Below, one piece after another: positions 1 to 13,963 of a stretch of 13,963 nt of DNA. How positions within the stretch are numbered: the stretch's first letter is position 1; each line of letters begins with the position of its first letter. A model generated the notes under the pieces. The model made no database searches. It had not been told where the DNA came from and worked only from the letters and a program-made list of their open reading frames with translations. This DNA comes from Candidatus Aenigmatarchaeota archaeon (GTDB lineage: Archaea > Aenigmatarchaeota > Aenigmatarchaeia > QMZP01), in the NCBI GenBank assembly GCA_038999435.1, contig JAVZYR010000016.1:1-13963 (forward strand). The letters are read 5' to 3'. A program made the position numbers and the translations under genes.

Positions 1-169
1 TAACAGACCGACCAAAGTGGGCAACAGCTATCCTGAAGCGGAAGCTCTAAAGAGCCTGCAGGTGGTTTCTGCTCCACCGCTCTTTGCATGAAGCGGAAGC
101 TCTAAAGAGCCTGCAGGTGGTTTCTGCTCCACCGCTCTTTGCATGAAGCGGAAGCTCTAAAGAGCGGTG
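1..169. repeat. Modular hairpin tandem-repeat array (55-nt period) directly abutting the tRNA-Gly T-loop; truncated by window edge
   Basis: TGAAGCGGAAGCTCTAAAGAGC at 34-55, 89-110, 144-165; CTGCAGGTGGTTTCTGCTCCACCGCTCTTTGCA at 56-88, 111-143; 1-33 is part of a longer alternative module also seen at 13853-13885. Confidence 0.95.
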
Positions 170-170
170 A

Positions 171-246
171 TTCGAACCCGGGCTATCGGCTTGGAAGGCC
201 GAGGTACTTTAGAGGGGTTTATGCCCAACCACTATACTACGGGCGC
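171..246 (-). tRNA. tRNA-Gly(TCC), 5' portion up to position 59, with a D-loop intron; 3' end (expected TCCCGGCGGGCGCA-like) not in window
   Basis: Reverse complement reads GCGCCCG TA GTAT AGTGGT[19 nt]A GTAC C TCGGC CT-TCC-AA GCCGA TAGC CCGGG TTCGAA, then repeat array. D-stem, anticodon arm and T-loop are recognisable. Confidence 0.9.
209..227 (-). other. 19-nt tRNA intron in D-loop (about 20/21) of tRNA-Gly
   Basis: TGGGCATAAACCCCTCTAA. Forms a BHB: D-stem GTAT/GTAC, bulge AAA, central helix AGTG/CTCT (one T-T mismatch), bulge GTT, inner helix GGG/CCC. Removal restores the D-loop AGTGGTA. Confidence 0.8.
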
Positions 247-267
247 ATTAAAATATTACTTTTAAGA

Positions 268-717
268 TTAAAATTCGAATTCTTCTTCCTCTTTTTCTGG
301 TGCTGATGATTTTATCGTTTTTTGCAGTTTTTCCATACTCGCTTTATCAAGCAGTTTTATAGGCAGCATTGATTCAAGCCCTGGTGGTGCTTCGTTCAGA
401 AATCGTGGTATGATATGAAAATGTAAATGTGGCACAACCTGACCTGCAGCACGACCAGAAGAAAGAGATAGCGATATCCCATCTGCCTTCAGCGCATTTC
501 TTACCATCTCAGAAATCCTTCTTACATATATGAAAATGTCTCCTGCCTCTTTATCTGTCAGGTCTGAAAGAAATTCAACATGCCTTTTTGGTATAACAAG
601 TGTGTGTCCAGGATTTCTCGGATTTATGTCAAGAAATGCCATCACATCTTCATTTTCAAATATCTTGTATGCAGGTATTTTTCCTGTAACGATTTTACAA
701 AAGGTACATTCTTGCAT
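268..717 (-). CDS. HIT (histidine triad) family nucleotide hydrolase
   Basis: CTFCKI, AFLDINP, GHTLVIPKRH, AGQVVPHLHFHIIPR motifs. Start moved from 765 to ATG at 717 (MQECTFC) because the longer ORF overlaps tRNA-Pro. Confidence 0.95.
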   Translation of the reverse strand: MQECTFCKIVTGKIPAYKIFENEDVMAFLDINPRNPGHTLVIPKRHVEFLSDLTDKEAGDIFIYVRRISEMVRNALKADGISLSLSSGRAAGQVVPHLHFHIIPRFLNEAPPGLESMLPIKLLDKASMEKLQKTIKSSAPEKEEEEFEF

Positions 718-744
718 AAATAAAATTAGTCTTGGATTTAAAAA

Positions 745-930
745 TGGGCCCGCCCGGATTTTCACTAGAAACCCTCAAGGTTTCCAGCCATCCGGGAGCT
801 GTTTCGCTTCGCTCCACAACGCTTCCGGAAGCGTGCCGCGAGCGCTTTCTTCTTGAAAGAAAGGGCTCATTTGAACCGGGGTCTCGAGCTCCCAAGGCTC
901 GGATGCTAGACCAAGCTACACCACGGGCCC
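745..930 (-). tRNA. tRNA-Pro(TGG) with 111-nt T-loop intron
   Basis: After removing 759-869: GGGCCCG TG GTGT AGCTTGGTCTA GCAT C CGAGC CT-TGG-GA GCTCG AGAC CCCGG TTCAAAT CCGGG CGGGCCC A = 75-nt cloverleaf; no encoded CCA. Confidence 0.95.
759..869 (-). other. tRNA-Pro intron at 59/60, string of four hairpins
   Basis: T-stem CCCGG/CCGGG, central helix TTCA/TGAA, AAT at both splice sites (relaxed BHB/BHL). Hairpins: GAGCCCTTTCTT..AAGAAAGCGCTC, ACGCTTCCGGAAGCGT, GGAGC..GCTCC, CTGGAAACC..GGTTTCTAG. Confidence 0.88.
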
Positions 931-1007
931 ATATAAATAAAATTGTTTTAATTAAATAAACTCAAAGAACACCTATTGAGATAAAACTATTAAAATTTTT
1001 GCAAACC

Positions 1008-1020
1008 CAAGCTTTTTAAA
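1008..1020 (+). promoter_or_regulatory. Putative archaeal BRE/TATA promoter for the 1041 gene (leaderless)
   Basis: CAAGCTTTTTAAA with TTTTTAAA ending 20 nt before the ATG; the region is AT-rich, so specificity is low. Confidence 0.4.
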
Positions 1021-1040
1021 TTATTTGTTGAATACAAAAA

Positions 1041-2093
1041 ATGAGAAGCATTCTCGTTGTGTTAATTTTATTTATTGTTGCACTTTCTGGTTGCATACAA
1101 TATAATGAACAATCCGCAAATATATCTGAAGAAAATACAATACAATCAGGATCCCAATCTGAAATTAAAATTATAAATGAATCGATAGAAAATGAAGAAT
1201 CTATATCGAAAGAACCTTTTATTGTTTTTAATTTTAAATTTAAAAATGAGACATGTCTGTTAAATGGTGAAATATACCTTAATGATATTTTTTTAGGAGA
1301 AACATATGAAGGTCGTTATAATCTCACATTAACAAAATTTGAGCAATTCAAAAATAAGTCTGGTGATACACAAATAGTTTGTATTCAAGGCAGATATCCT
1401 TCCTGTTTCAGCGAATATAAAGGATGGTATTTTAAAGTATGTTGGTTTGTTAATATAACCAAAAGTGATTTTGAAATAAATTTATTACCAGTTTTATTTG
1501 AAGCAGAGATTACTCCAAGATGGCCGAGTTATTGTTATGAATATCGAAATTTTGTAAAACCAGAAAATATTTTAGATAAAATTAATGAATGGAAAGAAAT
1601 TGGGGTTTTAAATAAAGACATAAAAAGCAATATAGAATTTTTATGGAGTAAATCAAGTTTAAATGTAATATACTCAAAAGATTTTTGGATCTCAGGTGAT
1701 GCAGATTGGTGGAAACTGCCAAATGAAACATGGAATGACGTTGGCGATTGTGAAGATTGGTCAAATTTATTAATTTCACTTATCAAGGCTTATAATTCGT
1801 CAGCCAAATGCTATGCTATCGCATTGATCGATCATATTACAACAGTTTGTAAGTTTGATGAAGAATATCCGATTGAATATATTTTTTATGACCAGAAAAA
1901 ATTTTTCATAAGAGAAACGAGAAGTTATTATGACTATGATGTTAAGTTCAAGCTTCATAATTGGCTTAATACATATTTCAACCAATATGGAATCTACTCA
2001 AAATTCAGAAATGTAACATGTGCTTATGACAACGATGAATATTTTGAATTCAGAAATAATGACGAATTTCTCGAATGGTTAATGAATTTATAA
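1041..2093 (+). CDS. Secreted/lipid-anchored protein with C-terminal transglutaminase-like (Cys-His-Asp) domain
   Basis: Hydrophobic N-terminus ending in lipobox-like LSGC; W..P.ETW...GDCEDWS.L followed by DHIT and FYD; many N-x-S/T sequons; visibly AT-rich. Confidence 0.75.
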   Translation: MRSILVVLILFIVALSGCIQYNEQSANISEENTIQSGSQSEIKIINESIENEESISKEPFIVFNFKFKNETCLLNGEIYLNDIFLGETYEGRYNLTLTKFEQFKNKSGDTQIVCIQGRYPSCFSEYKGWYFKVCWFVNITKSDFEINLLPVLFEAEITPRWPSYCYEYRNFVKPENILDKINEWKEIGVLNKDIKSNIEFLWSKSSLNVIYSKDFWISGDADWWKLPNETWNDVGDCEDWSNLLISLIKAYNSSAKCYAIALIDHITTVCKFDEEYPIEYIFYDQKKFFIRETRSYYDYDVKFKLHNWLNTYFNQYGIYSKFRNVTCAYDNDEYFEFRNNDEFLEWLMNL

Positions 2094-2135
2094 ATCTCAG
2101 TTTTTGCAATTATTATTTCTGTTTATTTCTATGAA

Positions 2136-2412
2136 AGCCCCGGGAGGGATTCTCTCTGGAAACCCTCAAGGTTTCCAGCCATCCGGGAGCTGTTTCGCTT
2201 CGCTCCACAACGCTTCCACTCTGGAAGCGTAAGCTCCCTCTTGCTCGCACGCTTTTTGCCTAAAGCGTGCCCGCGAGCGCTTTCTTCTTGAAAGGTTTTG
2301 GAAGCGGCCAGCTCCTTCTTTCCGCGAGCACTTTCTTCTTGAAAGAAGGGGCTCTTTGAACCCTCAACCTATCGCTTACGAGGCGATTGCTCTACCATTG
2401 AGCTACCGGGGC
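2136..2412 (-). tRNA. tRNA-Thr(CGT) with 205-nt T-loop intron
   Basis: After removing 2150-2354: GCCCCGG TA GCTC AATGGTA GAGC A ATCGC CT-CGT-AA GCGAT AGGTT GAGGG TTCAAAT CCCTC CCGGGGC T = 72-nt cloverleaf; no encoded CCA. Confidence 0.95.
2150..2354 (-). other. tRNA-Thr intron at 59/60, modular hairpin string homologous to the tRNA-Pro intron
   Basis: 2159-2217 identical to 768-826; 2271-2294 identical to 836-859 and repeated with one mismatch at 2322-2345. Splice motif is relaxed (TTC/GAG helix, AAT bulge before T-stem). Confidence 0.85.
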
Positions 2413-2955
2413 ATCACCTATTAAATACTTGTTTATCAACCTATCTATTTTGAGATAGAGCTCTTTTTTGCTTCCATCATTTTTTATTCTGAGATCAGCA
2501 TCTTTTATAATCCTGTCTATGTGCCTTTCTGTTTCTCTTTTTTCTATATCAAGGAATTGCCTAAAGCTCATCTTCATTTCACCTTTACCTGCTTCGATCC
2601 TCCTTTTCCATCTTTGCTTAGCTGGTGCAAGTATGGCAACAATTAAGAAATTAGGAAAGCAATTTTTGAAATATGTCACCTCTTCAGGGAATCTTATCCC
2701 AGATATCACAATATTTTTTTTCTTTGCTTTTTTCGCAAGCAACTTTGCAAGCACATCATTTCCATGCCTTTTTCTCATCTCTGTTGCCAATTCAATCAGA
2801 TTATCCCTTGTTATCATCTTGCCCTTTTTCTTGAGCAGGGGCGCTAAAACATCAGCTGTGAAATCGAGTAGCTGAAATCCATACTTTTTCGCGACATATT
2901 CTGCAAAAACATTTTTCCCACTGTATCTTTTGCCAACAAGACCTATCACAACCAT
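2392..2955 (-). CDS. P-loop nucleotide kinase (dephospho-CoA kinase-like/UPF0200-like)
   Basis: VIGLVGKRYSGKN Walker A, VISGIRFPEE, R.KR lid, ADLRIKNDGS. Start at 2955 (MVVIG) preferred; 2973 possible. Stop codon lies within tRNA-Thr. Confidence 0.85.
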   Translation of the reverse strand: MVVIGLVGKRYSGKNVFAEYVAKKYGFQLLDFTADVLAPLLKKKGKMITRDNLIELATEMRKRHGNDVLAKLLAKKAKKKNIVISGIRFPEEVTYFKNCFPNFLIVAILAPAKQRWKRRIEAGKGEMKMSFRQFLDIEKRETERHIDRIIKDADLRIKNDGSKKELYLKIDRLINKYLIGDAPVAQW

Positions 2956-2981
2956 ATTAAATCTATTAAACAATTTTAATT

Positions 2982-3269
2982 ATGCCATTCGAGATTTCGG
3001 CAATATTTACATGGATATCAGGCCTTGACAGCCTGACCCTTGCAATCCTTGTTATCATAGCCCTCATCATTGCATTCAAAATATTTCAATATCTTTTAAA
3101 GGCATTGGTGATGGGACTGATGTTTGCCCTCATCCCACTTGGGCTTAGATGGCTTGGCTTTCCAGTACCTGTTGATATATCGACTGTGTTATTCTTTATC
3201 CTACTTGGCATATTGACATGCTTTGTCTACTCATTCCTTTCTTTTCTCAGTCGGCTTGTTAGGCGATAA
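2982..3269 (+). CDS. Small membrane protein (about 3 TM helices), unknown function
   Basis: 95-aa ORF with three hydrophobic stretches; fills the space between neighbours. Confidence 0.75.
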   Translation: MPFEISAIFTWISGLDSLTLAILVIIALIIAFKIFQYLLKALVMGLMFALIPLGLRWLGFPVPVDISTVLFFILLGILTCFVYSFLSFLSRLVRR

Positions 3270-3786
3270 CAACCTCAACAACTTTTTGCCCTGCCCTTTC
3301 TATTTCAAACCATAAAATCAGATTCGTCCTATCCCTTTTTAGCTGCGTTTCTATACCATAGAACTTAAGCCTAAACTCCTCATCTACAGGGACAAAGAAT
3401 GACACAGCATTGCTATCATCTATCCATATCCACCTTTCACCATCGTTTATGCCTATTGAGAAGTTTTGTCCTTCACCAAGAAAATTTCCAATTCCAATTT
3501 CTATGCTACTGTCATTTCTAATTGTATATATCCACACTGCCCTGAATCTGAAAAGCCGCTCTGCAAGCCTTTCCCTAATCCACATACTCCAATTCTGCAA
3601 GGTTGAAAGAGGGCTTGAGGCATTCAAACCTATATTAAATGCCCTTGGATATTCAGAGATAATGTTCTCTGAAACGGATTTTATGGTCCTTTCTTCAAAA
3701 AATCCCAGTGACATAAAAGAGAGAGTAATGGCTGTGAAGATGATAATGAAAATCACTGCTGCAAGAATGAAAAACTGTCCTCTCAT
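3259..3786 (-). CDS. Class III signal peptide (pilin-like) protein
   Basis: MRGQ followed by hydrophobic helix FFILAAVIFIIIF; ATG at 3786 overlaps the upstream TGA (ATGA coupling). Confidence 0.75.
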   Translation of the reverse strand: MRGQFFILAAVIFIIIFTAITLSFMSLGFFEERTIKSVSENIISEYPRAFNIGLNASSPLSTLQNWSMWIRERLAERLFRFRAVWIYTIRNDSSIEIGIGNFLGEGQNFSIGINDGERWIWIDDSNAVSFFVPVDEEFRLKFYGIETQLKRDRTNLILWFEIERAGQKVVEVVIA

Positions 3787-4097
3787 CGCCATATGTACAG
3801 CTTTAGCTCCTTCCATCCATCATCTTTTGCGAGCAGATAGCTTCCAGTCCATACCTCTTCAGCATCTATTTTACAGCCCCAGCATGCTGTGATGTTATAG
3901 CCATACAATGATATCACAGCCATGACATCTTCAGGCGTTCTTGCACCAAGCTTAACTGCATCATTGAGCAGTGTTTGTGCATCAGGGCCTGTTTCGCGCT
4001 GTGTATAGGCTGATATCAGGCCTGAGAGAAAAATCAGGAAGCCGAGGAGCAGTATACCTCCAATGCTTGCTTCGATTGTGTGAATAATACCTCTCAT
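3783..4097 (-). CDS. Small class III signal peptide-like membrane-anchored protein
   Basis: MRG-IIHTIEA then hydrophobic helix; C-terminal ELKLYIW strand. Start 4097 preferred; 4112 possible. Confidence 0.7.
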   Translation of the reverse strand: MRGIIHTIEASIGGILLLGFLIFLSGLISAYTQRETGPDAQTLLNDAVKLGARTPEDVMAVISLYGYNITACWGCKIDAEEVWTGSYLLAKDDGWKELKLYIWR

Positions 4098-4123
4098 ATT
4101 TATCTTTTCCACAAATAACTAAA

Positions 4124-4777
4124 ATGCTACCAAAGCTTTATAGAGTGTATAAAATCTTGCTCAGAGAATTTGGCCATCAGGGATGGTGGCCTGTCTCAGG
4201 CGGATTTAACCCACCTGAATGGGAGATATGCCTTGGTGCAATCCTAACACAGGCAACTGCTTGGCGGAATGTTGAGCAGGCATTGGAAAATCTCAAAAAG
4301 GCTGGCATCACAGACCCAACTGATATTTTATGCACAAGTCAACAAAAGCTTGGGCAAATAATCAGGCCAGCAGGCTATTATCAACAGAAGGCAAAAAGGC
4401 TAAGATATTTTGCAAAATTCGTTCAGGATTTTGGCTCATTCGATGCATTTAAAAAATGCGTTGACCGAGATATGCTTTTAGCAATACATGGCATAGGCAA
4501 GGAAACGGCAGATTCTATACTTCTGTATGCATGCAAAAGGCCAATTTTTGTAATAGATGCATACACAATCAGGCTTGCAGCCCGTCTTGGTATTTCTGAG
4601 AAGAGATATGATGGATTGCAGTATATCTTTCAATCACAACTTCCAAAAGATGTCGATATATACAAGGAATGCCATGCGCTGATTGTTGAGCATGGCAAGA
4701 AATTTTGCAGAAAAAAACCACAATGCGAGTTATGTCCACTTAAATCTAAGGAATGCACCTATACCACCAAGCCCTAA
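4124..4777 (+). CDS. Endonuclease III-related HhH-GPD DNA glycosylase with C-terminal [4Fe-4S] motif (COG2231-like)
   Basis: GWWP, GAILTQ, GYYQQKAKRL, HhH GIGKETADSIL, FVIDAY, C-x6-C-x2-C-x6-C. Glu occupies the Nth lyase-Lys position, so not called nth. Confidence 0.92.
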   Translation: MLPKLYRVYKILLREFGHQGWWPVSGGFNPPEWEICLGAILTQATAWRNVEQALENLKKAGITDPTDILCTSQQKLGQIIRPAGYYQQKAKRLRYFAKFVQDFGSFDAFKKCVDRDMLLAIHGIGKETADSILLYACKRPIFVIDAYTIRLAARLGISEKRYDGLQYIFQSQLPKDVDIYKECHALIVEHGKKFCRKKPQCELCPLKSKECTYTTKP

Positions 4778-5719
4778 AAAGATATCACCTGCCTCATGGC
4801 CTGTGCTGATGATTTCAATCTCAGCCCTGCTGGCCTCTGCCATGTCAAGTAGCTCTTCAGATTCTGATAATTTTGCTTCAGATATTAGCAGCATTCGAAC
4901 AGCACCTGCCTTTAATGCCATTTCTGTTTCAGCCCTGCCATATACAACAAGTCCATCCTTTTTTATTTCTGCAAGAAGGTTTTCGATAAGCTCTGTTTCT
5001 TTTGCTATCCTCATCTCTCTAAGAAGCCTATTACCAGACTTCCTTATTATTTCCTTTACTCCTGCTATGCTCACATCCGAGCAATGTTCAGACCACACCC
5101 TGTTTGCAATGTCAGGCCTCTTTGCCCTTATCCAATTTAGCAGATTCTCTCTTTCAAAACCAGGCCCACCAATTATCACAGATTTTTTCTCTTCTATCCA
5201 CTGCACAAGCCGTGCATACCATTCATCCCTTTCTTCCTTTTCCTTTTTTTTATATGCAAGCCTGCCAACAACCTTGATGCCCTGCTCTGTTATGGAAAAG
5301 AGCTCAGCGCCCTCTCTGTCCAGCAAAAGCATTGTCAGCTCAGGCCTTTTCCCTGCCTTTTTTATCCTTTCAAGCTCATGCGACTTCCATGCATGCCTTA
5401 TCTCAACCTTTTTCCCAATCTCTATATCAATGCTGTGATGCGCACCAAGCCGGACATGTGCAGGCCCTTGAACAATCACACCAAGCACCCTCAGCCCACC
5501 CTCTTTTATGCTCGATTTTTCAGCCCTTATTGTCAGTATCATAGGCACCTTCTCACCTTCGATAAATTGGCTATCTCTGTAGATTATCTCCTTCCGCGCT
5601 GTTTTTGCCCTGACCTCATCTCCTGCTTTTATGATACGGGAAAGAAGCCACAAATCATCAGTGGTTTCAGGTATGAGGCTAGCTGTATTTCTCCTTAGAT
5701 CTATGCTGAGAATTTTCAT
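4730..5719 (-). CDS. pelA: Pelota / Dom34 ribosome rescue factor
   Basis: PETTDDLWLL, LRVLGVI, GAHHSI, GPGF, VYG..E...A...GAV..LLIS, HEAG....GLGGIGAFLRF. Confidence 0.95.
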   Translation of the reverse strand: MKILSIDLRRNTASLIPETTDDLWLLSRIIKAGDEVRAKTARKEIIYRDSQFIEGEKVPMILTIRAEKSSIKEGGLRVLGVIVQGPAHVRLGAHHSIDIEIGKKVEIRHAWKSHELERIKKAGKRPELTMLLLDREGAELFSITEQGIKVVGRLAYKKKEKEERDEWYARLVQWIEEKKSVIIGGPGFERENLLNWIRAKRPDIANRVWSEHCSDVSIAGVKEIIRKSGNRLLREMRIAKETELIENLLAEIKKDGLVVYGRAETEMALKAGAVRMLLISEAKLSESEELLDMAEASRAEIEIISTGHEAGDIFLGLGGIGAFLRFKWT

Positions 5720-5750
5720 TTATATTTAATTCTTTCGGCCAATATTATTA

Positions 5751-6848
5751 ATGAGAGGTGTTGAGGATTTCATATACCTTCTTGCAATCGCATTTGCAAT
5801 CCTTATCATTCTTGGTCTTGCATCTGTATGGTATCCATACACACCACCAGCAAACTTTACAAAGATTGCAGGCTTTGAGCTTGGACTTGTTGGATGGATG
5901 GGTGAATGGCCTGCAAAGAGCTATGAGATAGGAACGGTTGAGCCAGGGACCCAAAAAGAGATACTGCTATCAATTGGACAGGTTGATGTTGAGCACTCAT
6001 ACTGGTCTGAGAGAAAAGGTGAGCATGCTGTGGTTGTGCCGACATGGGGCCTTGAGTGGATAAGGCGGGTAAAGGTAAAATTCGATGTGTGGCAGACAAA
6101 TAAGTATGGCCGATTGAGGGTGCTGTGGAATGGCAGGGAGTTACTAAACAGCTATGCAGACCCAAGAGAGTATGTATTTGTCATAGAACCTAATGAGGTA
6201 TTTAACAGCAATATGCTGATATTTGAGGCAGAGGACCCAGGCATGCGCTTCTGGGCATCAACTGTTTATACGATAAGGGATGTTGAGGTTGAGCTTGAAT
6301 ATGGCCCTGCACGCTTTTTCAGATTTGAACTCCTGCCATCAGAGGTTGAGGTATTTAATAAGGGAAAGGTGAGCTTCTATGGCTGGGGAAAGGGCAATCT
6401 GTCAATAAAGGTGAATGGCAGGGAGATATATAACAAAAGGCCAATAGGGGCTGATGAGGCAAATTTCACAGCAAGCCAGGCAGCGATTGTGCCTGGAGAG
6501 AATACACTCAGCTTTAGAAGCATAGGCGAGGATGTGCGATGCGAGAATACAAGGCTTGAGGTATGGCTACTCACACAAAACCTTGAGAAAGAGAGGACAT
6601 TTAATATCAGCGAGGCACAGTATGCAAAGCTTGGAAAGGGAGGGAAGATAAGGTTTAATGTTGCTGAGATAAGACGCGCAGGAGGGCTTTCAATCAGCTT
6701 GAATGGAAATGCGCTGGCAGTGCCACAGGTTCAAAAAGGCTGGAATGAGGTCAGCTTTAGCCAAGCACAGGCCAGGTCAGGTCTGAATGCCATAAAATTC
6801 ACTGCAACAGGCACATTTGATATAAGCAGCGTTGAGATTGGGTATTAA
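5751..6848 (+). CDS. Membrane-anchored extracellular beta-rich protein, unknown function
   Basis: MRG + N-terminal TM helix; three loosely repeated G.L.(V/I)..NG....GxN.L.F beta-sandwich-like units; N-x-S/T sequons. Confidence 0.8.
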   Translation: MRGVEDFIYLLAIAFAILIILGLASVWYPYTPPANFTKIAGFELGLVGWMGEWPAKSYEIGTVEPGTQKEILLSIGQVDVEHSYWSERKGEHAVVVPTWGLEWIRRVKVKFDVWQTNKYGRLRVLWNGRELLNSYADPREYVFVIEPNEVFNSNMLIFEAEDPGMRFWASTVYTIRDVEVELEYGPARFFRFELLPSEVEVFNKGKVSFYGWGKGNLSIKVNGREIYNKRPIGADEANFTASQAAIVPGENTLSFRSIGEDVRCENTRLEVWLLTQNLEKERTFNISEAQYAKLGKGGKIRFNVAEIRRAGGLSISLNGNALAVPQVQKGWNEVSFSQAQARSGLNAIKFTATGTFDISSVEIGY

Positions 6849-6853
6849 CATCA

Positions 6854-6867
6854 GAAAAGTATTTAAA
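6854..6867 (+). promoter_or_regulatory. Putative BRE + TATA box of the kinase gene
   Basis: GAAAAG-TATTTAAA ending 22 nt before the ATG at 6890, consistent with an archaeal leaderless promoter. Confidence 0.55.
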
Positions 6868-6889
6868 TTGTTTACTACTTTTAAGTAAT

Positions 6890-9094
6890 ATGGCAAAGTA
6901 TCAATATAACAGGAAGGAAACAAAGGCACAGATTGAGGAATATTTAAAAAAGGCAGAAGAGCATCTTAAAGATCCTAAAGGGCTTAATGATTTTATTTTT
7001 GCAGCAGATTACTATAGGCTTGCAATGCGAATAGATCAAGAATACAGACAGGAGCGATGGTGGAGAGGAAATAAACCGAAGAGAAAATATCTGAAATTAG
7101 CAAAAAAGGCTCTTAAAAAAGGTTTAAAAAATCATTGCGATGAAAATTCCATAAAAACAAAATTAGGAGAGATATATTTTTGGGCTGAAAAGGATGAAAA
7201 GGCAGTTGAAATACTTGAAAACCTAAACCCATTTCATCTCGCAGTTCTTTACGAATTTAGGGCTAAAGAAATGGAAAAAAGGGGAAAAGGGGAAAAAGCA
7301 AAAGAAGATTACAAAAGAGCAAAGGAATTTTATATTAAAAATAGAAGCTACCATCTTGCTGGAGGTATTGCTGAGAGGCTTGGTGAAAAAGAAGATGCTG
7401 CAGAACTTTTTGGAAAAAGTAGATTATTTGGTAGAAAGGCAGCAAAACTATATGAGGAGTTGGGAAAAAAGGAAAAAGCAGCAAAGCTGTATGAAAAACA
7501 TTTCAATCTTTCACTTCGAGTGCCTTATCTTTTGAAGGGCACAGATTCTGCAAAAAGGGCTGCAGAATTATATTTTGAGATGGCAATGTACAGCAAAGAT
7601 TCTACGAAAAAGAGAGAATTTTTAGAAAAGGCAGCTGATATGTATGAAAATGTAGAGGATTGGGACAATGCGTTAAAAGTTTATGAGATGTTAGGTGATA
7701 AAAATAATGCTTTATGGGTAAAAGGCTGTAAATATGAAAGGGAGGGAGATTTTGCCGAAGCTGCAAAGTGTTTTAGAAGTATAGATGCTGAAAGGGCTGT
7801 AGAAAATTGGTTGAAAGTAGATATCGATGATAAAAATTTGAGATTGAAAATAGAAGACCTTGAAAAGATAGGCCCAGAATATAAAAATTATGATCAAGTA
7901 GTAAAAGAACTCGTTAAATTATATGAAACAGAAATTAGTGATAGAATCAAAAGATCCGGTGAAGATTTTCTTTCATATATATTTGAAAGTGATATTGTTA
8001 ACAAGGCAATTGGAAAAATAGAAGAGATATCCAAAGGTAAAAAGTGGTCTGAAGATACAGCCAAAATTTCTGAAAATATTGGATATGCATATCTGAAGGG
8101 TATGTTGTATTATATGGAAGCAATCAAGAAAATAGACAACGTGATGAAAACCGGTAGTAGTAACGGGGAAAAAATGGAAGCAAAAAGGTATTTACAAAAA
8201 TCAAAAGATTGTTTTGACAATGTTTGGAGGATAGATGAAAAATACAAAGATGTTAATAAATGGAGAGAATTTTTATCTCAAGACCATTTTCTCATTAAAA
8301 GGATTGGAAAAGGTGGGATGGGAAGTGTATATTTAGGATGGAATGTATCAGGTGCGATGGGGGATTTCAGAGAAGCAATAAAGTTATCAAAAAAAATAGA
8401 AGGATTTGATCCTCAGAAATTAGAATATGAGGCCTTAAAAAAAGTTAAGAGTCCATATATTGTAACATTAAGAAGTGCTATAGAAATTCAGCCCAGTCCT
8501 TATTCAGAAAAAATGGTTGCACTTATACTTGATTATATTGATGGTAAATCTATGTTTAAAATTTTTGATAGAGAAGATAAGAACCTAAATTTAGGTTTGT
8601 ATGATTTGAAGGATGCGCTTGAGATATTCATAAAGCTTGCAGAAGGTATTGAGGCAATACATAAAGAAAATTTAATACATAGGGATATAAAGCCATCAAA
8701 TATCATTATTTCAGAAAAGGATCCTATCATACTCGATTTTGGCATTGCTGAATTTTCAGATAAAATAGAATGGGATGGCGTTGGAACACCTGACTATCTT
8801 CCGCCAGAAGCCCAAGCAGGAAAGTATGGTCAATTTACTGACATATATGCCTTTGGGGTAACAATCTATGAATTTCTTACAGGTAAGAAACCGGATGAAA
8901 AGCCACCTGAGCTTTCAGAAAAATATCCTCAAAAATTGAGAGATCTCATAAAAAATATGTGTGATAGTAATTGTGGTAAAAGACCTAAAATCGAGGATGT
9001 CAAAGAAACCCTCAAAGAAATTTATAAATCAATATGTGGAGAAGAATTTACGGATAGGTCACAAGATGAAGATCAAACAAGAATAGTAACATAA
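6890..9094 (+). CDS. Hanks-type Ser/Thr protein kinase with long N-terminal TPR/SNAP-like helical repeats
   Basis: IGKGGMGSVY, AIK, HRDIKPSN, DFG, GTPDYLPPE, DIYAFG, KRP. N-terminal AA.LYE..G..EKAA repeats; no TM segment seen. Confidence 0.93.
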   Translation: MAKYQYNRKETKAQIEEYLKKAEEHLKDPKGLNDFIFAADYYRLAMRIDQEYRQERWWRGNKPKRKYLKLAKKALKKGLKNHCDENSIKTKLGEIYFWAEKDEKAVEILENLNPFHLAVLYEFRAKEMEKRGKGEKAKEDYKRAKEFYIKNRSYHLAGGIAERLGEKEDAAELFGKSRLFGRKAAKLYEELGKKEKAAKLYEKHFNLSLRVPYLLKGTDSAKRAAELYFEMAMYSKDSTKKREFLEKAADMYENVEDWDNALKVYEMLGDKNNALWVKGCKYEREGDFAEAAKCFRSIDAERAVENWLKVDIDDKNLRLKIEDLEKIGPEYKNYDQVVKELVKLYETEISDRIKRSGEDFLSYIFESDIVNKAIGKIEEISKGKKWSEDTAKISENIGYAYLKGMLYYMEAIKKIDNVMKTGSSNGEKMEAKRYLQKSKDCFDNVWRIDEKYKDVNKWREFLSQDHFLIKRIGKGGMGSVYLGWNVSGAMGDFREAIKLSKKIEGFDPQKLEYEALKKVKSPYIVTLRSAIEIQPSPYSEKMVALILDYIDGKSMFKIFDREDKNLNLGLYDLKDALEIFIKLAEGIEAIHKENLIHRDIKPSNIIISEKDPIILDFGIAEFSDKIEWDGVGTPDYLPPEAQAGKYGQFTDIYAFGVTIYEFLTGKKPDEKPPELSEKYPQKLRDLIKNMCDSNCGKRPKIEDVKETLKEIYKSICGEEFTDRSQDEDQTRIVT

Positions 9095-9121
9095 TTTTAA
9101 TGGCAAAAACAATTATTTAAA

Positions 9122-10669
9122 ATGGTAGAAAATAACGATTATGAGGAGTCAGAGCTTGAAGAAATTAAAGAAATAATTACAAGTGTTATTTTTTATTATC
9201 TTTATGAGAAATATTATATTATTGATGTTTTAAATGATATAAACACGAATAAGGAGAAAAGCACATATTTTAATGATATTATAAATGGTATAAAAAGCAA
9301 AATTGAAGAAAAGATTGAAGAAGAGCAACTGGATGTTGATTTTGAAAAAATTAAAGGTCAAATAGAAGACTACGTATTGAAATATTGCGAGATAGCTGCA
9401 GAAAAAGGAATTGATGAAGCAAATAAACTTGAATTCCCTTTGGGAAAACCAGGAGAGGGAGCAGGGCCTGAGCTTAAAAAAGAAATTAAAAATATAATTA
9501 TAAATGTTACAACCAAAGAAGCTTATAAAAAAGGAACTTCTACAGTTTTCAATGATATAAAAAATAATAAGAAGAAAAGCGGGTATTTTAAAGAAATTAT
9601 AAATATTATAACAAATTTGATAAAAGATGAAATTCCAAATGAACGGTTCGAAGAGATTAAAGAACAAATAGAAGACTACGTATTGAAATATTGCGAGATA
9701 GCTGCAGATCCTAATAGAGGAATTAATGAAGCAAATAACCTTGAATTCCCTTTGGGAAAACCAGGAGAGGGAGCAGGGCCCTCCAAACCAGGAGAGGGAG
9801 AAAGTAGGACAATTCTTTGCCCGCAATGTCTTGTGAAAAATGCAAGATATAGTTTTATATTGAAAGGTAGAAAAGTGAGAATAAGATGCGAATGTGGCTA
9901 TGATAAAATATGGGATGTAGAAGATTTTTATGAATGGAAAAATGAAGTTAAGCAAATTATAGAAAAAAGAAATAACCTAAACAAAAATCTTGCTAAAACT
10001 GAAATTGATGAGAAAATTAAGGAGCTCAGGGGTAAGCATAGATGGTGGAGCAAGAAAAAATTGGAGGATGAAGCAAGAAAACAGATAATTAATGAAACAC
10101 TCGCAGATGTGAAACCTTCTACAAGAGAAAAAATACTCAAATTACATAGGTTGACATCTCTGCCAGGCTTACCTGAGGCATGGCATATAACAAAAAATAT
10201 TGTAGAATCTTTGACGCTCATAATCATCGGCCTGATTATATCTACCTTGCTTGGCAATTTTTGGTTTATACTTGCATTCCTTTGTTGGGGCATTTCTGTG
10301 AATATGCCTGAGCCTCAAAACATAGGTGCTGTGAAAGAAAAAATGGAAAAGATACGGGGAGAATACCAAACCAGAATGGAAGAAGCCAAAACAGAAGAGG
10401 AGAGGGCAGATATTGCCCAGCAGATGAGGGCAGAGATTGAAGTTGAAAAAATCATAGGAGAAATAGGATTACGTAACATGGTTGGTATTGGGATATTAAG
10501 CAAACAATTTTTAAGAGCACTTGGGGCATTCTTCCTTGGACTGGCATTCCTGTTATTTGGTGCTCCGCTAGCACCAATTATAGGTCTTATCATACTTTTT
10601 GCATCATACTTTTTGATAGGCGGCTATAGGACAGCTCAAACTGAAAAAAAGGAAGGAGGTATTACCTGA
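9122..10669 (+). CDS. Membrane protein: duplicated ~105-aa helical N-terminal domain, Zn-ribbon, coiled coils, about 4 TM helices
   Basis: Two copies of QIEDYVLKYCEIAA..GI.EAN.LEFPLGKPGEGAGP; CPQC..CECG; two hydrophobic hairpins separated by a charged helix. Confidence 0.85.
   Translation: MVENNDYEESELEEIKEIITSVIFYYLYEKYYIIDVLNDINTNKEKSTYFNDIINGIKSKIEEKIEEEQLDVDFEKIKGQIEDYVLKYCEIAAEKGIDEANKLEFPLGKPGEGAGPELKKEIKNIIINVTTKEAYKKGTSTVFNDIKNNKKKSGYFKEIINIITNLIKDEIPNERFEEIKEQIEDYVLKYCEIAADPNRGINEANNLEFPLGKPGEGAGPSKPGEGESRTILCPQCLVKNARYSFILKGRKVRIRCECGYDKIWDVEDFYEWKNEVKQIIEKRNNLNKNLAKTEIDEKIKELRGKHRWWSKKKLEDEARKQIINETLADVKPSTREKILKLHRLTSLPGLPEAWHITKNIVESLTLIIIGLIISTLLGNFWFILAFLCWGISVNMPEPQNIGAVKEKMEKIRGEYQTRMEEAKTEEERADIAQQMRAEIEVEKIIGEIGLRNMVGIGILSKQFLRALGAFFLGLAFLLFGAPLAPIIGLIILFASYFLIGGYRTAQTEKKEGGIT
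9152..9800 (+). repeat. Intragenic tandem duplication (about 9152-9469 / 9470-9781) plus short third copy
   Basis: 44-nt identity 9359-9402 vs 9665-9708; 41-nt identity 9428-9468 vs 9740-9780; AAACCAGGAGAGGGAG again at 9785-9800. Confidence 0.9.
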
Positions 10670-12399
10670 TGTCAAATGGTGGCTATACACCAACAGAGTA
10701 TATGCAGGCATGGGTTAGGGCAATCTTCAGCGTGGTTATAGCCTTGGCCATAATCCTTATATTTCATAATCTTTTCTTAGGTTTGCTTGCACTAACCTTT
10801 TTCTTTTTCATCCCTGTTCAAGACATAGAAGTAGAAAATTCTCTAAATGGAGGTATATTCGCTTGTCTTATGATGATAATTCTTATGCTTGCATTCGTAA
10901 ATAAAGAGATATTTGGACTTGGACTTGATTTTGGAGTAGAATTTTCCCGTTTTGCTTTTGTGCCTATTGGGCTTTTTGTACTTGCAGGATTTGTCAGGGC
11001 TGCGATTATATTCGCTGCTCCAAGGGGTGGTCGATGGGCAGCAGCCGAGTTTGAAATGTTTGCAAACCTTGCCATGATAGGCACAGTAGCCCTTCTTATA
11101 ATCGTTTTACAGGCATGGAAATGGAATACTTCAACAATCATATTCACAGGCATATGGCTATTTGCATATCTTGCAGGCTCAACAGGTGATCTGATGTCAA
11201 GACAACAGATGGGTGCTATTTTAATGACAATCTCCTTTGCTATATTCTCTCTTGGTGTTGGCACACAGCTCGTAGGCACTGCCATGTTCGGTGAATGGTG
11301 GCCTACGGTTTATCAATTTGGACAATCTGTATTTAGTCCGCTCGGTCAGATGTGGTCTGAGCTGACAGGCACATTCGGGCTCGGCTTTCAGATACTCACA
11401 AACCCTGTCGGCTTTGCACAGAGCATGATGAATGGCACGTATGCCACAGACCCACTCTCAGGGTTAAGAGGGGCATATGGCGTTGAGATTGTCGATTTCA
11501 GAACAACACCCATATTTCCATATCAACCCTTCAATATCATTGTACAGCTAAAGAATCAGGGCGCGTTCGATGCAAAGGATATCACATTTAACATAGGTCT
11601 TGGCAAAGAGGCACCACCAGAATTTACAATTGATAAATTGGGTCTTGACAAAAACTCTTCAACCATTTCGGGCATGGCAAGGCTTGATGTGCAGCAGATG
11701 ATGTTCACAGGCAAAATCACATGTGAGACGATAAATGAGGTTAGAGGTAAGATAAGGATAGGTGGTCTCAGAGAGTACATTATTCCGCTAAAAGGTACTG
11801 TCAGTTACAGTTATTCAATCGAATCAACCCTTGACATACAATTCCTATCCAGCGCAGAATGGGAAAGGCTTGTTAAACAAGGCCAGATTATAACACAGAC
11901 AAAGAAGCCGTCAACATTTACAAATGCACCTGTTCGGCTGAATATAGACAGCATGGAGCAACCGATAAAAGAAGGCACGCAATTCTATATTGGCATTGCA
12001 CTCACATCAGCGCAGGGCGAGGATAGTAGCATATCAAATGCCAGAGTTCAGTTGGAGATACCATTTAATATAACCAAAAAAATAAGCTGCAGCACGCCTC
12101 CATCATCCCAACAACCTTCCCAACAAAGCACAATATTAACTTGGGAGCCTAGCAATTGGTCAGCAACAGGCGTTGTTTACTGCCTTTTTGATGGGCTTAC
12201 AGCAACAGCTATTGGCACAAGCAAGACATTCACGATAAAGGCACATGCAAACTATACTTTTACCAAATCAAAGGCATATCCTGCAAAAATAGAATTTGGC
12301 GGTGGATGCTGTGATGCTAAAGATTGTCCTGATCCAGAAGCCTATATCTGTAAAAGAAAAGAAGGAGAAATAGGTGCATGCGTGCCAAAACAGGCTTAG
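10669..12399 (+). CDS. Polytopic membrane protein with C-terminal extracellular Ig/CARDB-like region and Cys-rich tail
   Basis: About 7 hydrophobic helices in first ~210 aa; FNIIVQLKNQG.FDA Ig-like strand; CC...C......C........C tail; TGATG overlap with upstream gene. Confidence 0.8.
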   Translation: MSNGGYTPTEYMQAWVRAIFSVVIALAIILIFHNLFLGLLALTFFFFIPVQDIEVENSLNGGIFACLMMIILMLAFVNKEIFGLGLDFGVEFSRFAFVPIGLFVLAGFVRAAIIFAAPRGGRWAAAEFEMFANLAMIGTVALLIIVLQAWKWNTSTIIFTGIWLFAYLAGSTGDLMSRQQMGAILMTISFAIFSLGVGTQLVGTAMFGEWWPTVYQFGQSVFSPLGQMWSELTGTFGLGFQILTNPVGFAQSMMNGTYATDPLSGLRGAYGVEIVDFRTTPIFPYQPFNIIVQLKNQGAFDAKDITFNIGLGKEAPPEFTIDKLGLDKNSSTISGMARLDVQQMMFTGKITCETINEVRGKIRIGGLREYIIPLKGTVSYSYSIESTLDIQFLSSAEWERLVKQGQIITQTKKPSTFTNAPVRLNIDSMEQPIKEGTQFYIGIALTSAQGEDSSISNARVQLEIPFNITKKISCSTPPSSQQPSQQSTILTWEPSNWSATGVVYCLFDGLTATAIGTSKTFTIKAHANYTFTKSKAYPAKIEFGGGCCDAKDCPDPEAYICKRKEGEIGACVPKQA

Positions 12400-13190
12400 A
12401 CCAACACACCAAGCCTTATAGTATCTCTAAGCCCTGGTGCAAGCCCTAAAATCAGTATCACAAGTTTGAGGAATGTCCTAAATTGTCCCTTCTCTGTCCA
12501 TCTATCTATCGCAATCAGCACAGGAATGAGCACAAAGAATTTTATCAGAAAGAATGCATATGGGCTTATCGTCATCACAACCCTTGGTAGTACATGTTGC
12601 TCAAGATAGCCAAAAAGCACAACTGCGGTGACGGTTGCCGTTGCATCGAGCGAATGTGCACAAAGTATGCATACATTGGCCTTTGTAAAATATTTTGGCA
12701 TCACTTTAGCCCAGGCAAGCCATAGCCCTGACCATATGCCTGTGACAGTAAGAACGATCGCTGGCGGGACAAAGAAGAAGCGTGGTATAAAGAGGATATT
12801 GATGGCACAGAACACAGAACCGAGTACGAGCATAGCCTTCCAGTATGAAATACCAGCCCTCTGTTGTAGAATTAGGCTGATAAGCAGGCAGGCAAGTGCA
12901 AGGCCAAATGTTAGCAGGTATGAGCCAGGTGTTACCCATATCGGGCTTGAAAATATACCATCTATTAGGCCAGCACTCGCAGCATCCTTCAGCACACGGG
13001 CTGTTGCAGCCCACAGCACAAACGGCATGAGAGCAGCACAGAAGTAGACATCGATTTTTATCTTTAGTTTTATTAAAAGCCTGTACACAAGCCATGCACC
13101 AATCACGAGCAGAATCCCATAAACAAATGTATTTATCGGATTAAACCAGCCATTTCTCAATATCGGCTCGATAAACCATTCGTAAAACAT
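12396..13190 (-). CDS. DUF63 family archaeal membrane protein
   Basis: FNPINTFVYG, RVLKDA, VTPGSY, AHSLDATAT, YLEQHVL, LGLAPGLRDTIR motifs; multiple TM helices. Confidence 0.85.
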   Translation of the reverse strand: MFYEWFIEPILRNGWFNPINTFVYGILLVIGAWLVYRLLIKLKIKIDVYFCAALMPFVLWAATARVLKDAASAGLIDGIFSSPIWVTPGSYLLTFGLALACLLISLILQQRAGISYWKAMLVLGSVFCAINILFIPRFFFVPPAIVLTVTGIWSGLWLAWAKVMPKYFTKANVCILCAHSLDATATVTAVVLFGYLEQHVLPRVVMTISPYAFFLIKFFVLIPVLIAIDRWTEKGQFRTFLKLVILILGLAPGLRDTIRLGVLV

Positions 13191-13216
13191 AATAAATTTT
13201 TGCTTTTAAATTAAAT

Positions 13217-13774
13217 ATGAGAGAATTTGAGCTGCAATCAGGACTTTATGATGAACAGCCGGTGATTGAAGAAAAATATCTCAAAAAATACTATCACAAG
13301 GTTAAGGACAAGCTTGATGATTTCTTTAAAAGGCATATTGGCAGACAGCCATATCTCGGAAGGATAAAAATCAAGCTCTGCAAACTCCCAACATATCTAT
13401 ACAAGGTAGGCAACAAAATAGGTATAAGTAAGATATTTGGTGCATATGAGCCATCAAGCAATTCTGTGTATATAGACCCTGTATGTCTACCAGAGTTAAA
13501 TGATCCTGAACGTGCATATCTCAAAAAATATTTCAGGATACCAAGCGCAGAGCGAACGCTTGCTGAAGAGCTTGTGCATGCAGACCAGACAAACAGTGGC
13601 ATCATCTCAAAAAGTATATATAAATACGGTAAAAGGGCCCGTGAATACATTGAGGGGGCAGCAGCGCACATTGCAGATATGATATATGGTTATACAGATG
13701 CATACAAAAGTTGGAAGGAAAGGTTTCGCAGGGCTATGGGCAGTTTAGGACTAAGAAAGGCATATTATCTATAA
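13217..13774 (+). CDS. Zincin-like metallopeptidase-fold protein with variant EExxH motif
   Basis: GAY......YID.......TLAEELVHADQ ... IEGAA arrangement typical of gluzincin-like proteins, but first His is Glu. Confidence 0.65.
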   Translation: MREFELQSGLYDEQPVIEEKYLKKYYHKVKDKLDDFFKRHIGRQPYLGRIKIKLCKLPTYLYKVGNKIGISKIFGAYEPSSNSVYIDPVCLPELNDPERAYLKKYFRIPSAERTLAEELVHADQTNSGIISKSIYKYGKRAREYIEGAAAHIADMIYGYTDAYKSWKERFRRAMGSLGLRKAYYL

Positions 13775-13794
13775 CATAAATTTCAGCTTTTTGT

Positions 13795-13963
13795 GCTCTA
13801 AAGAGCCCTGCAGGTGGTTTCTGCTCCACCGCTCAGCTTGCAAAGCCCACCTTAACAGACCGACCAAAGTGGGCAACAGCTATCCTGAAGCGGTAGCTCT
13901 AAAGAGCTCTGCAGGTGGTTTCTGCTCCACCGCTCTTTGCATGAAGCGGTAGCTCTAAAGAGC
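13795..13963. repeat. Second copy of the modular hairpin array, truncated by window edge
   Basis: GCTCTAAAGAGC at 13795, 13896, 13952; 13853-13963 matches 1-110 except for two A>T substitutions and one inserted T. Confidence 0.95.

Follow-up and report, generated by a model that had tools for sequence, protein, structure and literature searches.

Contig C16 of genome G000 (Candidatus Aenigmatarchaeota archaeon) begins with a tRNA-Gly gene, read on the reverse strand, which passes into a tandem repeat array and is then ended by the contig itself. The question raised by this locus is whether the gene is interrupted by an intron, truncated or split, and what the repeated unit represents. The window, i.e. 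the whole stretch of DNA that was analysed (13 963 nucleotides), is the entire contig, and the 3' strands of the T-stem and acceptor stem are absent from it, as stated in the initial annotation. The G000 assembly comprises 549 kb in 30 contigs, with a G+C content of ~38 %, and is rated 86 % complete. Pfam matches identify the genes of C16 as chromosomal housekeeping genes.

Comparison of the sequence and alignment with orthologs identify 246..171 (reverse strand) as the 5' part of a tRNA-Gly(UCC) gene (Table 1). It matches the tRNA-Gly(UCC) genes of three relatives, G064, G020 and G012, along its whole length and shows no decay. A 19-nt segment of the D-loop coincides with a gap of 18–19 columns in all three of these orthologs. 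The T-loop heptamer, TTCGAAT, is located at 176..170. No other Gly(UCC) anticodon arm was found in the 549-kb assembly. The Rfam tRNA model matches 164–240 on the reverse strand over model positions 7–64 with 23.3 bits (the gathering score is 29), and the gene is not called by ARAGORN. A HIT-family gene is situated directly upstream, and occupies the same position in G064, G020 and G012; conservation of this linkage indicates that the locus is ancestral. The HIT query from the window has no match in G001, a member of the same genus (genome 71 % complete), so that synteny is not available for the left end of C16.

Table 1. Features of the tRNA-Gly(UCC) locus and of the array at the opposite end of contig C16
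Feature	Position	Strand	Evidence
tRNA-Gly(UCC) exon piece 1: acceptor 5' strand, positions 8–9, D-stem 5' strand, D-loop start	228..246	-	Sequence; alignment with G064, G020 and G012 orthologs
19-nt D-loop insert, candidate short second intron, with small GGG/CCC hairpin	209..227	-	Ortholog alignment
tRNA-Gly(UCC) exon piece 2: D-stem 3' strand, anticodon arm (loop CTTCCAA), variable region of 4 nt, 5' strand of T-stem, T-loop as far as about position 59	171..208	-	Sequence; orthologs; partial Rfam match
Probable T-loop (59/60) intron, 5' part, ended by contig end	1..170	-	Sequence; tandem repeat; junction type shared with relatives
Module copy 1	111..169	-	R1 match 110–169, 82.4 bits; fold
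Module copy 2, identical to copy 1 over the 55-nt unit except first bases	56..110	-	R1 match 55–113, 67.2 bits; Tandem Repeats Finder
Module copy 3, 5' part; contig end cuts nested second hairpin in its loop	1..55	-	Same composite in C11 and 13795–13907
HIT-family gene directly upstream of tRNA-Gly(UCC)	268..765	-	Pfam HIT, 5.6e-29
Second array, same module family, other contig end	13795..13963	-	Repeat comparison; synteny

The sequence confirms that the tRNA reads normally through the T-loop heptamer and then switches to an insert. This insert begins with CACCGCTCTTT at 169 and continues to position 1, a length of at least 170 nt. The 55-nt period noted initially is exact: Tandem Repeats Finder reports a repeat at 34–165 with 2.4 copies, 100 % matches, no indels and a score of 264, and segments 34–88 and 89–143 are 100 % identical. 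The perfect pairing proposed for the first insert bases was likewise borne out, as 169..159 is the exact complement of 140..130 and of 85..75; in both the MFE and the centroid structure it pairs with the nearest copy. In copy 1, a helix formed by CACCGCTCTTT and AAAGAGCGGTG surrounds a small inner hairpin, and is followed by the hairpin GGTGG-AGCAGAAA-CCACC and by TGCAG. The loop region of copy 3 carries a nested second hairpin element. The order at the 5' half of the junction is T-stem, TTCG, the 3-nt AAT and then the 11-bp helix, the 3' half being absent from the window. A CRISPR array was ruled out, because the units abut, the period equals the unit length of 55 nt and there are no unique spacers. 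No Rfam 15 family reaches its gathering score, and in window positions 1–300 the array has only matches with E ≥ 0.99.

Contigs from four public hot-spring metagenome runs, all of one study and possibly including the source sample, were compared with the window. In three of the four runs the exon continues into the insert, by 27, 18 and 27 letters respectively (X1 144–797, X2 153–766 and X4 144–766). A bridge across 170/171 was defined as 31 letters on each side, and this length is reached in none of the four. The contigs give partial support for the junction between exon and insert. An assembly chimera at 165–171 is unlikely, because the start of the same sequence at the T-loop heptamer recurs in relatives.

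Complete genes in relatives show how such an insert ends. In G064 (contig C103), the tRNA-Gly(UCC) gene contains one module after TTCGAAG, then a 13-nt tail, AAT and the 3' strands of the T-stem and acceptor stem. The CGAG in this tail can pair with TTCG. The predicted fold of the G064 pre-tRNA is a cloverleaf in which the T-stem is extended by UUC/GAG and by the module helix (z = −3.49; none of 200 shuffles is as good). At this T-loop site the G020 ortholog carries a 62-nt intron of unrelated sequence, and that in G012 has no T-loop intron. In tRNA-Ala(GGC) of G065 (contig C7), two tandem modules occupy the T-loop and the 3' exon is intact. The initial annotation predicted a partner for TTCG, a 3-nt bulge and a 3' exon; this arrangement is present in the G064 ortholog, in the order module, CGAG, AAT and exon, but the exon of the G000 gene itself was not found. 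It had also proposed that any unit of the array could close the helix. This is trivially true of identical copies, but superfluous: the helix of each unit forms within that unit, and the position of the 3' splice site would be determined by the T-stem together with the tail of the intron, as it is in the relatives with complete genes.

G000 encodes candidate enzymes for removal of such introns. A fragment of a splicing endonuclease (EndA) is present at C7:3–524, with a PF01974 match at C7:3–455 (62 bits). Its best PDB match is the three-unit ARMAN-2 enzyme (4fz2_A, E = 4e-55, chain residues 219–387); the likeness to the three-unit enzyme is that of the fragment, as the gene is cut by the start of C7. 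RtcB is encoded on C15 (568 bits). The ARMAN-2 enzyme is reported to cleave an intron at 59/60 with the relaxed hBH motif in vitro (PMC3239211), and a 2018 account gives the three-unit ε2 type as known only from Micrarchaeum and Mancarchaeum (PMC5829648).

The locus probably represents a cis-spliced 59/60 intron in which the first module provides the intron-side helix, which has been enlarged by tandem duplication, and whose 3' exon has been lost to an assembly break. The window would then hold three quarters of a working tRNA-Gly(UCC) gene, from its 5' end onwards, interrupted by two introns. The D-loop intron would be 19 nt in length; the other, at 59/60 in the T-loop, would be long and built of at least three head-to-tail copies of a module of ~58 nt. 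Because it starts right after the AAT bulge behind TTCG, the helix of copy 1 would serve as the intron-side helix of a BHB or relaxed hBH motif. This motif would be completed by the T-stem, by TTCG paired with the intron tail and by a second AAT bulge. An ε2-like splicing endonuclease would cut at the motif, and RtcB would join the exons. The additional module copies would have been generated by tandem duplication, and may be passive cargo. Past position 1 would follow the remaining part of the intron and then the 3' exon of about 13 nt; judged from the homologous array at the opposite end of C16, that remaining part may be only roughly 80–100 nt. The assembler may have stopped here because the next bases are a nearly exact repeat of another locus. 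Since the smallest contig of the G000 assembly is 5372 bases, a short piece carrying the exon may be outside the bin.

The unit count of 2.4 is that of one short-read assembly and may be wrong. A variant compatible with the preferred reading is that the intron is real and the three-copy array is an assembler product, the true locus containing one module or some other number. This is rather unlikely. Units that are 100 % identical over 132 nt are the situation in which graph assemblers loop, the public contigs break at 144 or 153, inside the array, and the complete G064 ortholog has a single module. Against this, the joint between units must exist at least once. Contigs of runs X2, X3 and X4 cover the joint positions 54 or 109, and have an extra C after them. 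Such 1-nt variants are the only differences between units seen in contigs of other runs, where the initial annotation had suggested that intron length may vary within the population. Tandem modules recur in independent assemblies (G015:C83, G072:C55, G065:C7 and G065:C29).

Whether the gene is complete in the organism depends on the 3' exon. There is no exact or one-mismatch copy of its 12-mer in the G000 contigs. When G–U pairs and up to one mismatch are allowed, the 30 contigs give 27 matches, classed as coding or unrelated and with none in a tRNA-like setting; the nearest of the 27 is the 3' exon of tRNA-Gly(CCC) on C3. None of the 60 contig ends of G000 carries the exon, and the ORFs downstream of tRNA-Gly in G064 and G012 have no G000 ortholog at E < 1e-8. 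The public contigs of the four runs do not reach past either window end. A metagenome scan with a 28-nt exon pattern returned two loci, both of them intronless tRNA genes of unrelated, G+C-rich organisms, and the collection scans gave no 3' exon for tRNA-Gly(UCC) of G000.

The other end of C16 carries a second array of the same family. Segment 13853–13963 is 97 % identical to 1–110, and the two ends differ at 3 places in 111. In the RNA sense, the second array finishes in an intron-like tail about 20 nt from the stop codon of ORF 13217–13774. It is not followed by a tRNA 3' exon, and no tRNA signal is present in 13500–13963. Module arrays lacking a tRNA 3' exon therefore exist in G000. In G001, the ortholog of ORF 13217–13774 (49 % identity) is followed by 20 nt and then a gene, whose G000 ortholog (80 % identity, residues 83–293) is located at the right end of contig C4. 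Judged from this gene order, the right end of C16 probably abuts the right end of C4, in which case the second array would have been inserted between two genes, on the strand opposite to both. G000 thus has near-identical composite arrays in two settings, one within an intron and the other apparently away from any complete tRNA gene. A circular contig or plasmid was ruled out by the three differences between the ends, the housekeeping genes and the C4 synteny.

These results bear on a second alternative, in which the locus is a 3'-truncated tRNA fragment whose exon was removed by rearrangement or array insertion, with a working tRNA-Gly(UCC) encoded in the unassembled 14 % of the genome. The absence of the exon from the assembly, and the exon-less array with an intron-like tail 14 kb away, are consistent with this. 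Free-standing arrays exist, one of them directly after the HIT gene of G015: at L133 (G015:C83, 925–1587) tandem modules and then the contig end come immediately after the HIT stop codon, and no tRNA-Gly exon intervenes. Mobile DNA is also reported to leave tRNA 5' fragments in Caldiarchaeum (PMC3293823). Such truncation is nevertheless improbable, given that the assembly contains no other Gly(UCC) arm, that the exon shows no decay relative to its orthologs, that the linkage with HIT marks the ancestral locus and that the junction is of the standard type of working module introns. Least likely of all, and very improbable, is a split tRNA, with a 5' piece and module trailer here and a 3' piece with a complementary leader elsewhere, trans-joined at a BHB, since split tRNAs are not known to occur at 59/60, no candidate 3' piece was found in the 549 kb of this 86 %-complete genome, the G064 and G020 orthologs are cis genes with an intron at the same site, and an assembly break in a repeat suffices as an explanation; for it speak the failure to find a 3' exon either in cis or anywhere else in the 30 contigs, the long intermolecular helices that repeated modules could give and the broad-specificity endonucleases reported to accompany split tRNAs in other archaea (PMC3239211).

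The preferred reading, a cis-spliced T-loop intron, is in keeping with the other tRNA genes of G000. A strict stem-matching script returned 36 rows, 31 of which were kept as tRNA-like; two looser scripts were discarded, having given 923 and 3125 rows that were mostly spurious. The script requires a complete 3' exon, and so misses tRNA-Gly(UCC) itself. In 24 of the 31 genes an insert of 11 to 306 nt follows the T-loop heptamer, so the site of the tRNA-Gly insert is shared with the neighbouring tRNA-Pro and with most of the recovered set. The majority of these inserts belong to another sequence family, with tails ending in GAAAAT or GAGAAT. The insert of tRNA-Gly(UCC), which is of the CACCGC type, has counterparts at three other loci. 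Two are in T-loops, one of 38 nt in a gene on C1, where the module is truncated, and one of 234 nt in tRNA-Arg(UCG) of C11; the third occupies the anticodon loop of tRNA-Gln(UUG) on C4. Similar intron sequence is thus common to different tRNA species and positions on C1, C4, C11 and C16.

Two further interrupted genes are present in the window, both with inserts of another family: tRNA-Pro(UGG) (746–930, reverse strand), with a T-loop insert of 111 nt, and tRNA-Thr(CGU) (2137–2412, reverse strand), with one of 205 nt. The two inserts share 71 nt at 96 % identity (756–826 and 2147–2217). ARAGORN miscalls tRNA-Pro(UGG) and misses tRNA-Thr(CGU), and Rfam matches only positions 7–64 of the latter. 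The tRNA sets of such genomes look incomplete because detectors miss genes and assemblies break inside introns. Contigs of runs X1 and X4 join position 763 to 13879, linking the tRNA-Pro(UGG) 3' exon and flank, with the intron end ATTTTC, to a CACCGC-type module. This join could derive from a strain with different tRNA-Pro intron content, or may reflect a repeat or another organism; its shorter side is only 29 letters.

The initial annotation took the array for a tandemly amplifying intron. The 55-nt unit is not specific to this intron: it is a copy of a self-contained module that is multi-copy across the order and is also present outside introns. The module is ~58 nt long, and consists of a main helix of 7–11 bp with an inner hairpin (loop TNCC), the second hairpin GGTGG-AGCAGAAA-CCACC and a TGCA linker. 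From 11 copies of nine genomes, RNAalifold predicts the main helix, with compensatory changes in 6 of 15 pairs. A covariance model, R1, aligned 87 matches from 78 loci, two rows being the same sequence. In this alignment 96.9 % of cells pair, and in 9 of the 15 pairs both partners vary; covariation scores 0.392, compared with 0.160 for shuffles (none of 500 reaches the observed value) and ≤ 0.075 for slid partners, and as the alignment was fitted to the model, these values are biased toward the structure. No C/D-box, H/ACA or k-turn motif was seen on inspection by eye.

Of the 91 genomes of the archaeal order, 54 have a match to R1 (E ≤ 1e-3), and the largest number of copies in any one genome is 17. 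When the phylum is sampled evenly, the module is present in all four families of the order (f1, 8/13; f4, 2/2; f2, 5/12; f6, 4/7) and in two of seven genomes of a neighbouring family, and is absent from all 109 genomes of 23 other families (E ≤ 1e-4). A scan of a genome collection with a 16-mer of the module gave at least 117 loci, nearly all of them chance bacterial matches; the relevant one, in a MAG titled Aenigmatarchaeota, has the module in a D-loop at a contig end. At two loci (L085 and L089), one of them beside a tRNA gene, a MAG titled Woesearchaeota contains a simple palindrome with the first 16 bases of the module. This palindrome folds straight back on itself between flanking GGAAATTTC-type arms and differs from the module. 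The literature searched contains no description of the module, which cannot prove that none is in print.

The 87 rows were classed by eye from 62-nt flanks, and 15 loci were also scanned with Rfam and 10 flanking ORFs with Pfam. The module is situated at the start of a T-loop intron in 20 rows, as a second tandem copy within such an intron in two and in the interior of one T-loop intron in two. D-loop introns account for seven rows and anticodon-loop or variable-arm inserts for eight. Three rows fall inside a 5S rRNA gene, two in an rRNA-operon spacer and two directly after the mature 3' end of a tRNA. Four rows (two of them clear) are antisense, beside or inside an intron of a tRNA gene on the opposite strand, one is the right end of the window, and 36 are intergenic. 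With 36 intergenic rows and three in 5S rRNA genes, the module is not confined to tRNA introns; as introns, 5S rRNA genes and spacers all carry it, it is a lineage-specific repeat and not particular to the tRNA-Gly intron.

In the 20 T-loop rows the module starts 0–2 nt from the heptamer, and three of these loci in relatives have intact 3' exons. Four intergenic copies directly adjoin a stop codon, in each case that of a gene for HIT, ribosomal protein S15, arginyl-tRNA synthetase or aEF-2. In some relatives the copies hold another hairpin nested in the loop region, as in copy 3 of the window. In many relatives modules are found no more than about 150 nt from a contig end, for example in G015:C83, G072:C55, G070:C110, G020:C157, G065:C21 and G070:C35, in keeping with the repeat as the cause of the break in C16. 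In stable-RNA genes there are ~42 sense rows compared with four antisense (two clear). This sense bias, and the coincidence of the module start with the 5' splice site, argue for a role of the module at the RNA level, at the least as a helix through which a new insert would become spliceable.

Antisense modules are present in T-loop introns of opposite-strand tRNA genes at L171 (G006:C1, 1501–1627) and L214 (G067:C45). In G006, sense and antisense copies lie back to back in a single intron. The antisense copies in these G006 and G067 introns indicate that insertion in either orientation occurs at the DNA level.

Inserts of ~70–80 nt containing the module are present in three 5S rRNA genes: L197 (G064:C28, 123–316), L196 (G065:C1) and L198 (G070:C35). 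They are located between ...CCCAT and (T)CGAACACGGAAG, and end in GGGGAAAT, like the tRNA introns. In G064:C28, the Rfam 5S_rRNA match spans the insert (50.1 bits). These inserts are candidates for introns spliced by the endonuclease. Among the titles and beginnings of abstracts listed in a literature search, none describes an archaeal 5S rRNA intron, and in one paper from that search 5S rRNA features only as a probe and as a tRNase Z substrate; a published case may nevertheless exist.

Neither T-loop introns nor heavily disrupted tRNA sets are new. The introns at 59/60 reported for ARMAN-2 (PMC3239211) share with the present one the T-loop position, a highly disrupted tRNA set and the relaxed BHB-type junction that is predicted here, and that organism supplies the closest solved endonuclease. 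The cleaved ARMAN-2 intron described there is 13 nt, whereas the intron in G000 exceeds 170 nt, is built of tandem repeats, belongs to another DPANN lineage and has no 3' junction in the window. In Thermoproteales, intron families are shared amongst different tRNA genes, a pattern termed 'intron transposition' in a review (PMC4090602) that summarizes Fujishima et al. (2010). Similar introns likewise occur in different tRNA genes here; unlike the Thermoproteales families as presented in that review, the module is also found in gene spacers, tRNA trailers, rRNA spacers and 5S rRNA genes, and in tandem and nested forms. The tRNA-Thr fragment of Caldiarchaeum, reported together with intron gain in connection with a mobile element (Sugahara et al., 2012; PMC3293823), is also a 5' part without a 3' part, in a natural population and beside repeats. 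The Caldiarchaeum element is reported as 1.8 kb and encodes a recombinase, whereas the module is 58 nt and non-coding, with no recombinase beside it in the window. What is new is a discrete, covarying module that is present in most sampled genomes of one archaeal order, in introns at three tRNA positions and at other sites.

Bacterial REP/BIME repeats are short, multi-copy, hairpin-forming and lineage-specific, lie mostly between genes and are sometimes in tandem. The module is alike in these respects, but differs in having no link with a Y1 transposase, in its strong sense bias in stable-RNA genes and in a start that corresponds to the 5' splice site. The Y1 transposase (PF01797) was found in 17 of the 91 genomes of the order. 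It is absent from G000, G072 and G005, which contain 7, 17 and 10 module copies respectively, while six are present in G017, which has none. A REP/RAYT or IS200/IS605-derived repeat was rejected as an identity for the module, as no cognate Y1 transposase tracks it.

It is possible, although doubtful, that the module is an autonomous structured mobile cassette, which seeds or rebuilds spliced introns in tRNA and 5S rRNA genes and settles in gene spacers. If so, the twin arrays at the ends of C16 would record a recent copying of DNA between an intron and a non-intron site. The mechanism by which archaeal tRNA introns arrive is termed 'unknown' in the review cited above (PMC4090602), and their arrival is called open in a 2026 Asgard preprint (10.64898/2026.10.13.758758). 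A module family that comprises both free-standing copies and copies within introns, and whose sites are filled in some close relatives and empty in others, provides a concrete test case for intron arrival.

Two minor features were observed. At L175 (G011:C6, 1128–2387), the 3' end of a 23S rRNA gene, one module and an RNase P RNA-like match are arranged head to tail within 1.3 kb; the RNase P RNA-like match scores 52 bits (cut-off 84), and the 23S match skips a 256-nt insert. Within the window, direct repeats of ~125 nt at 9341–9468 and 9647–9780 have 92–97 % identity and a spacing of 306–312 nt. They are held by ORF 9122–10669, which has no Pfam match, and represent an internal duplication of a protein segment.
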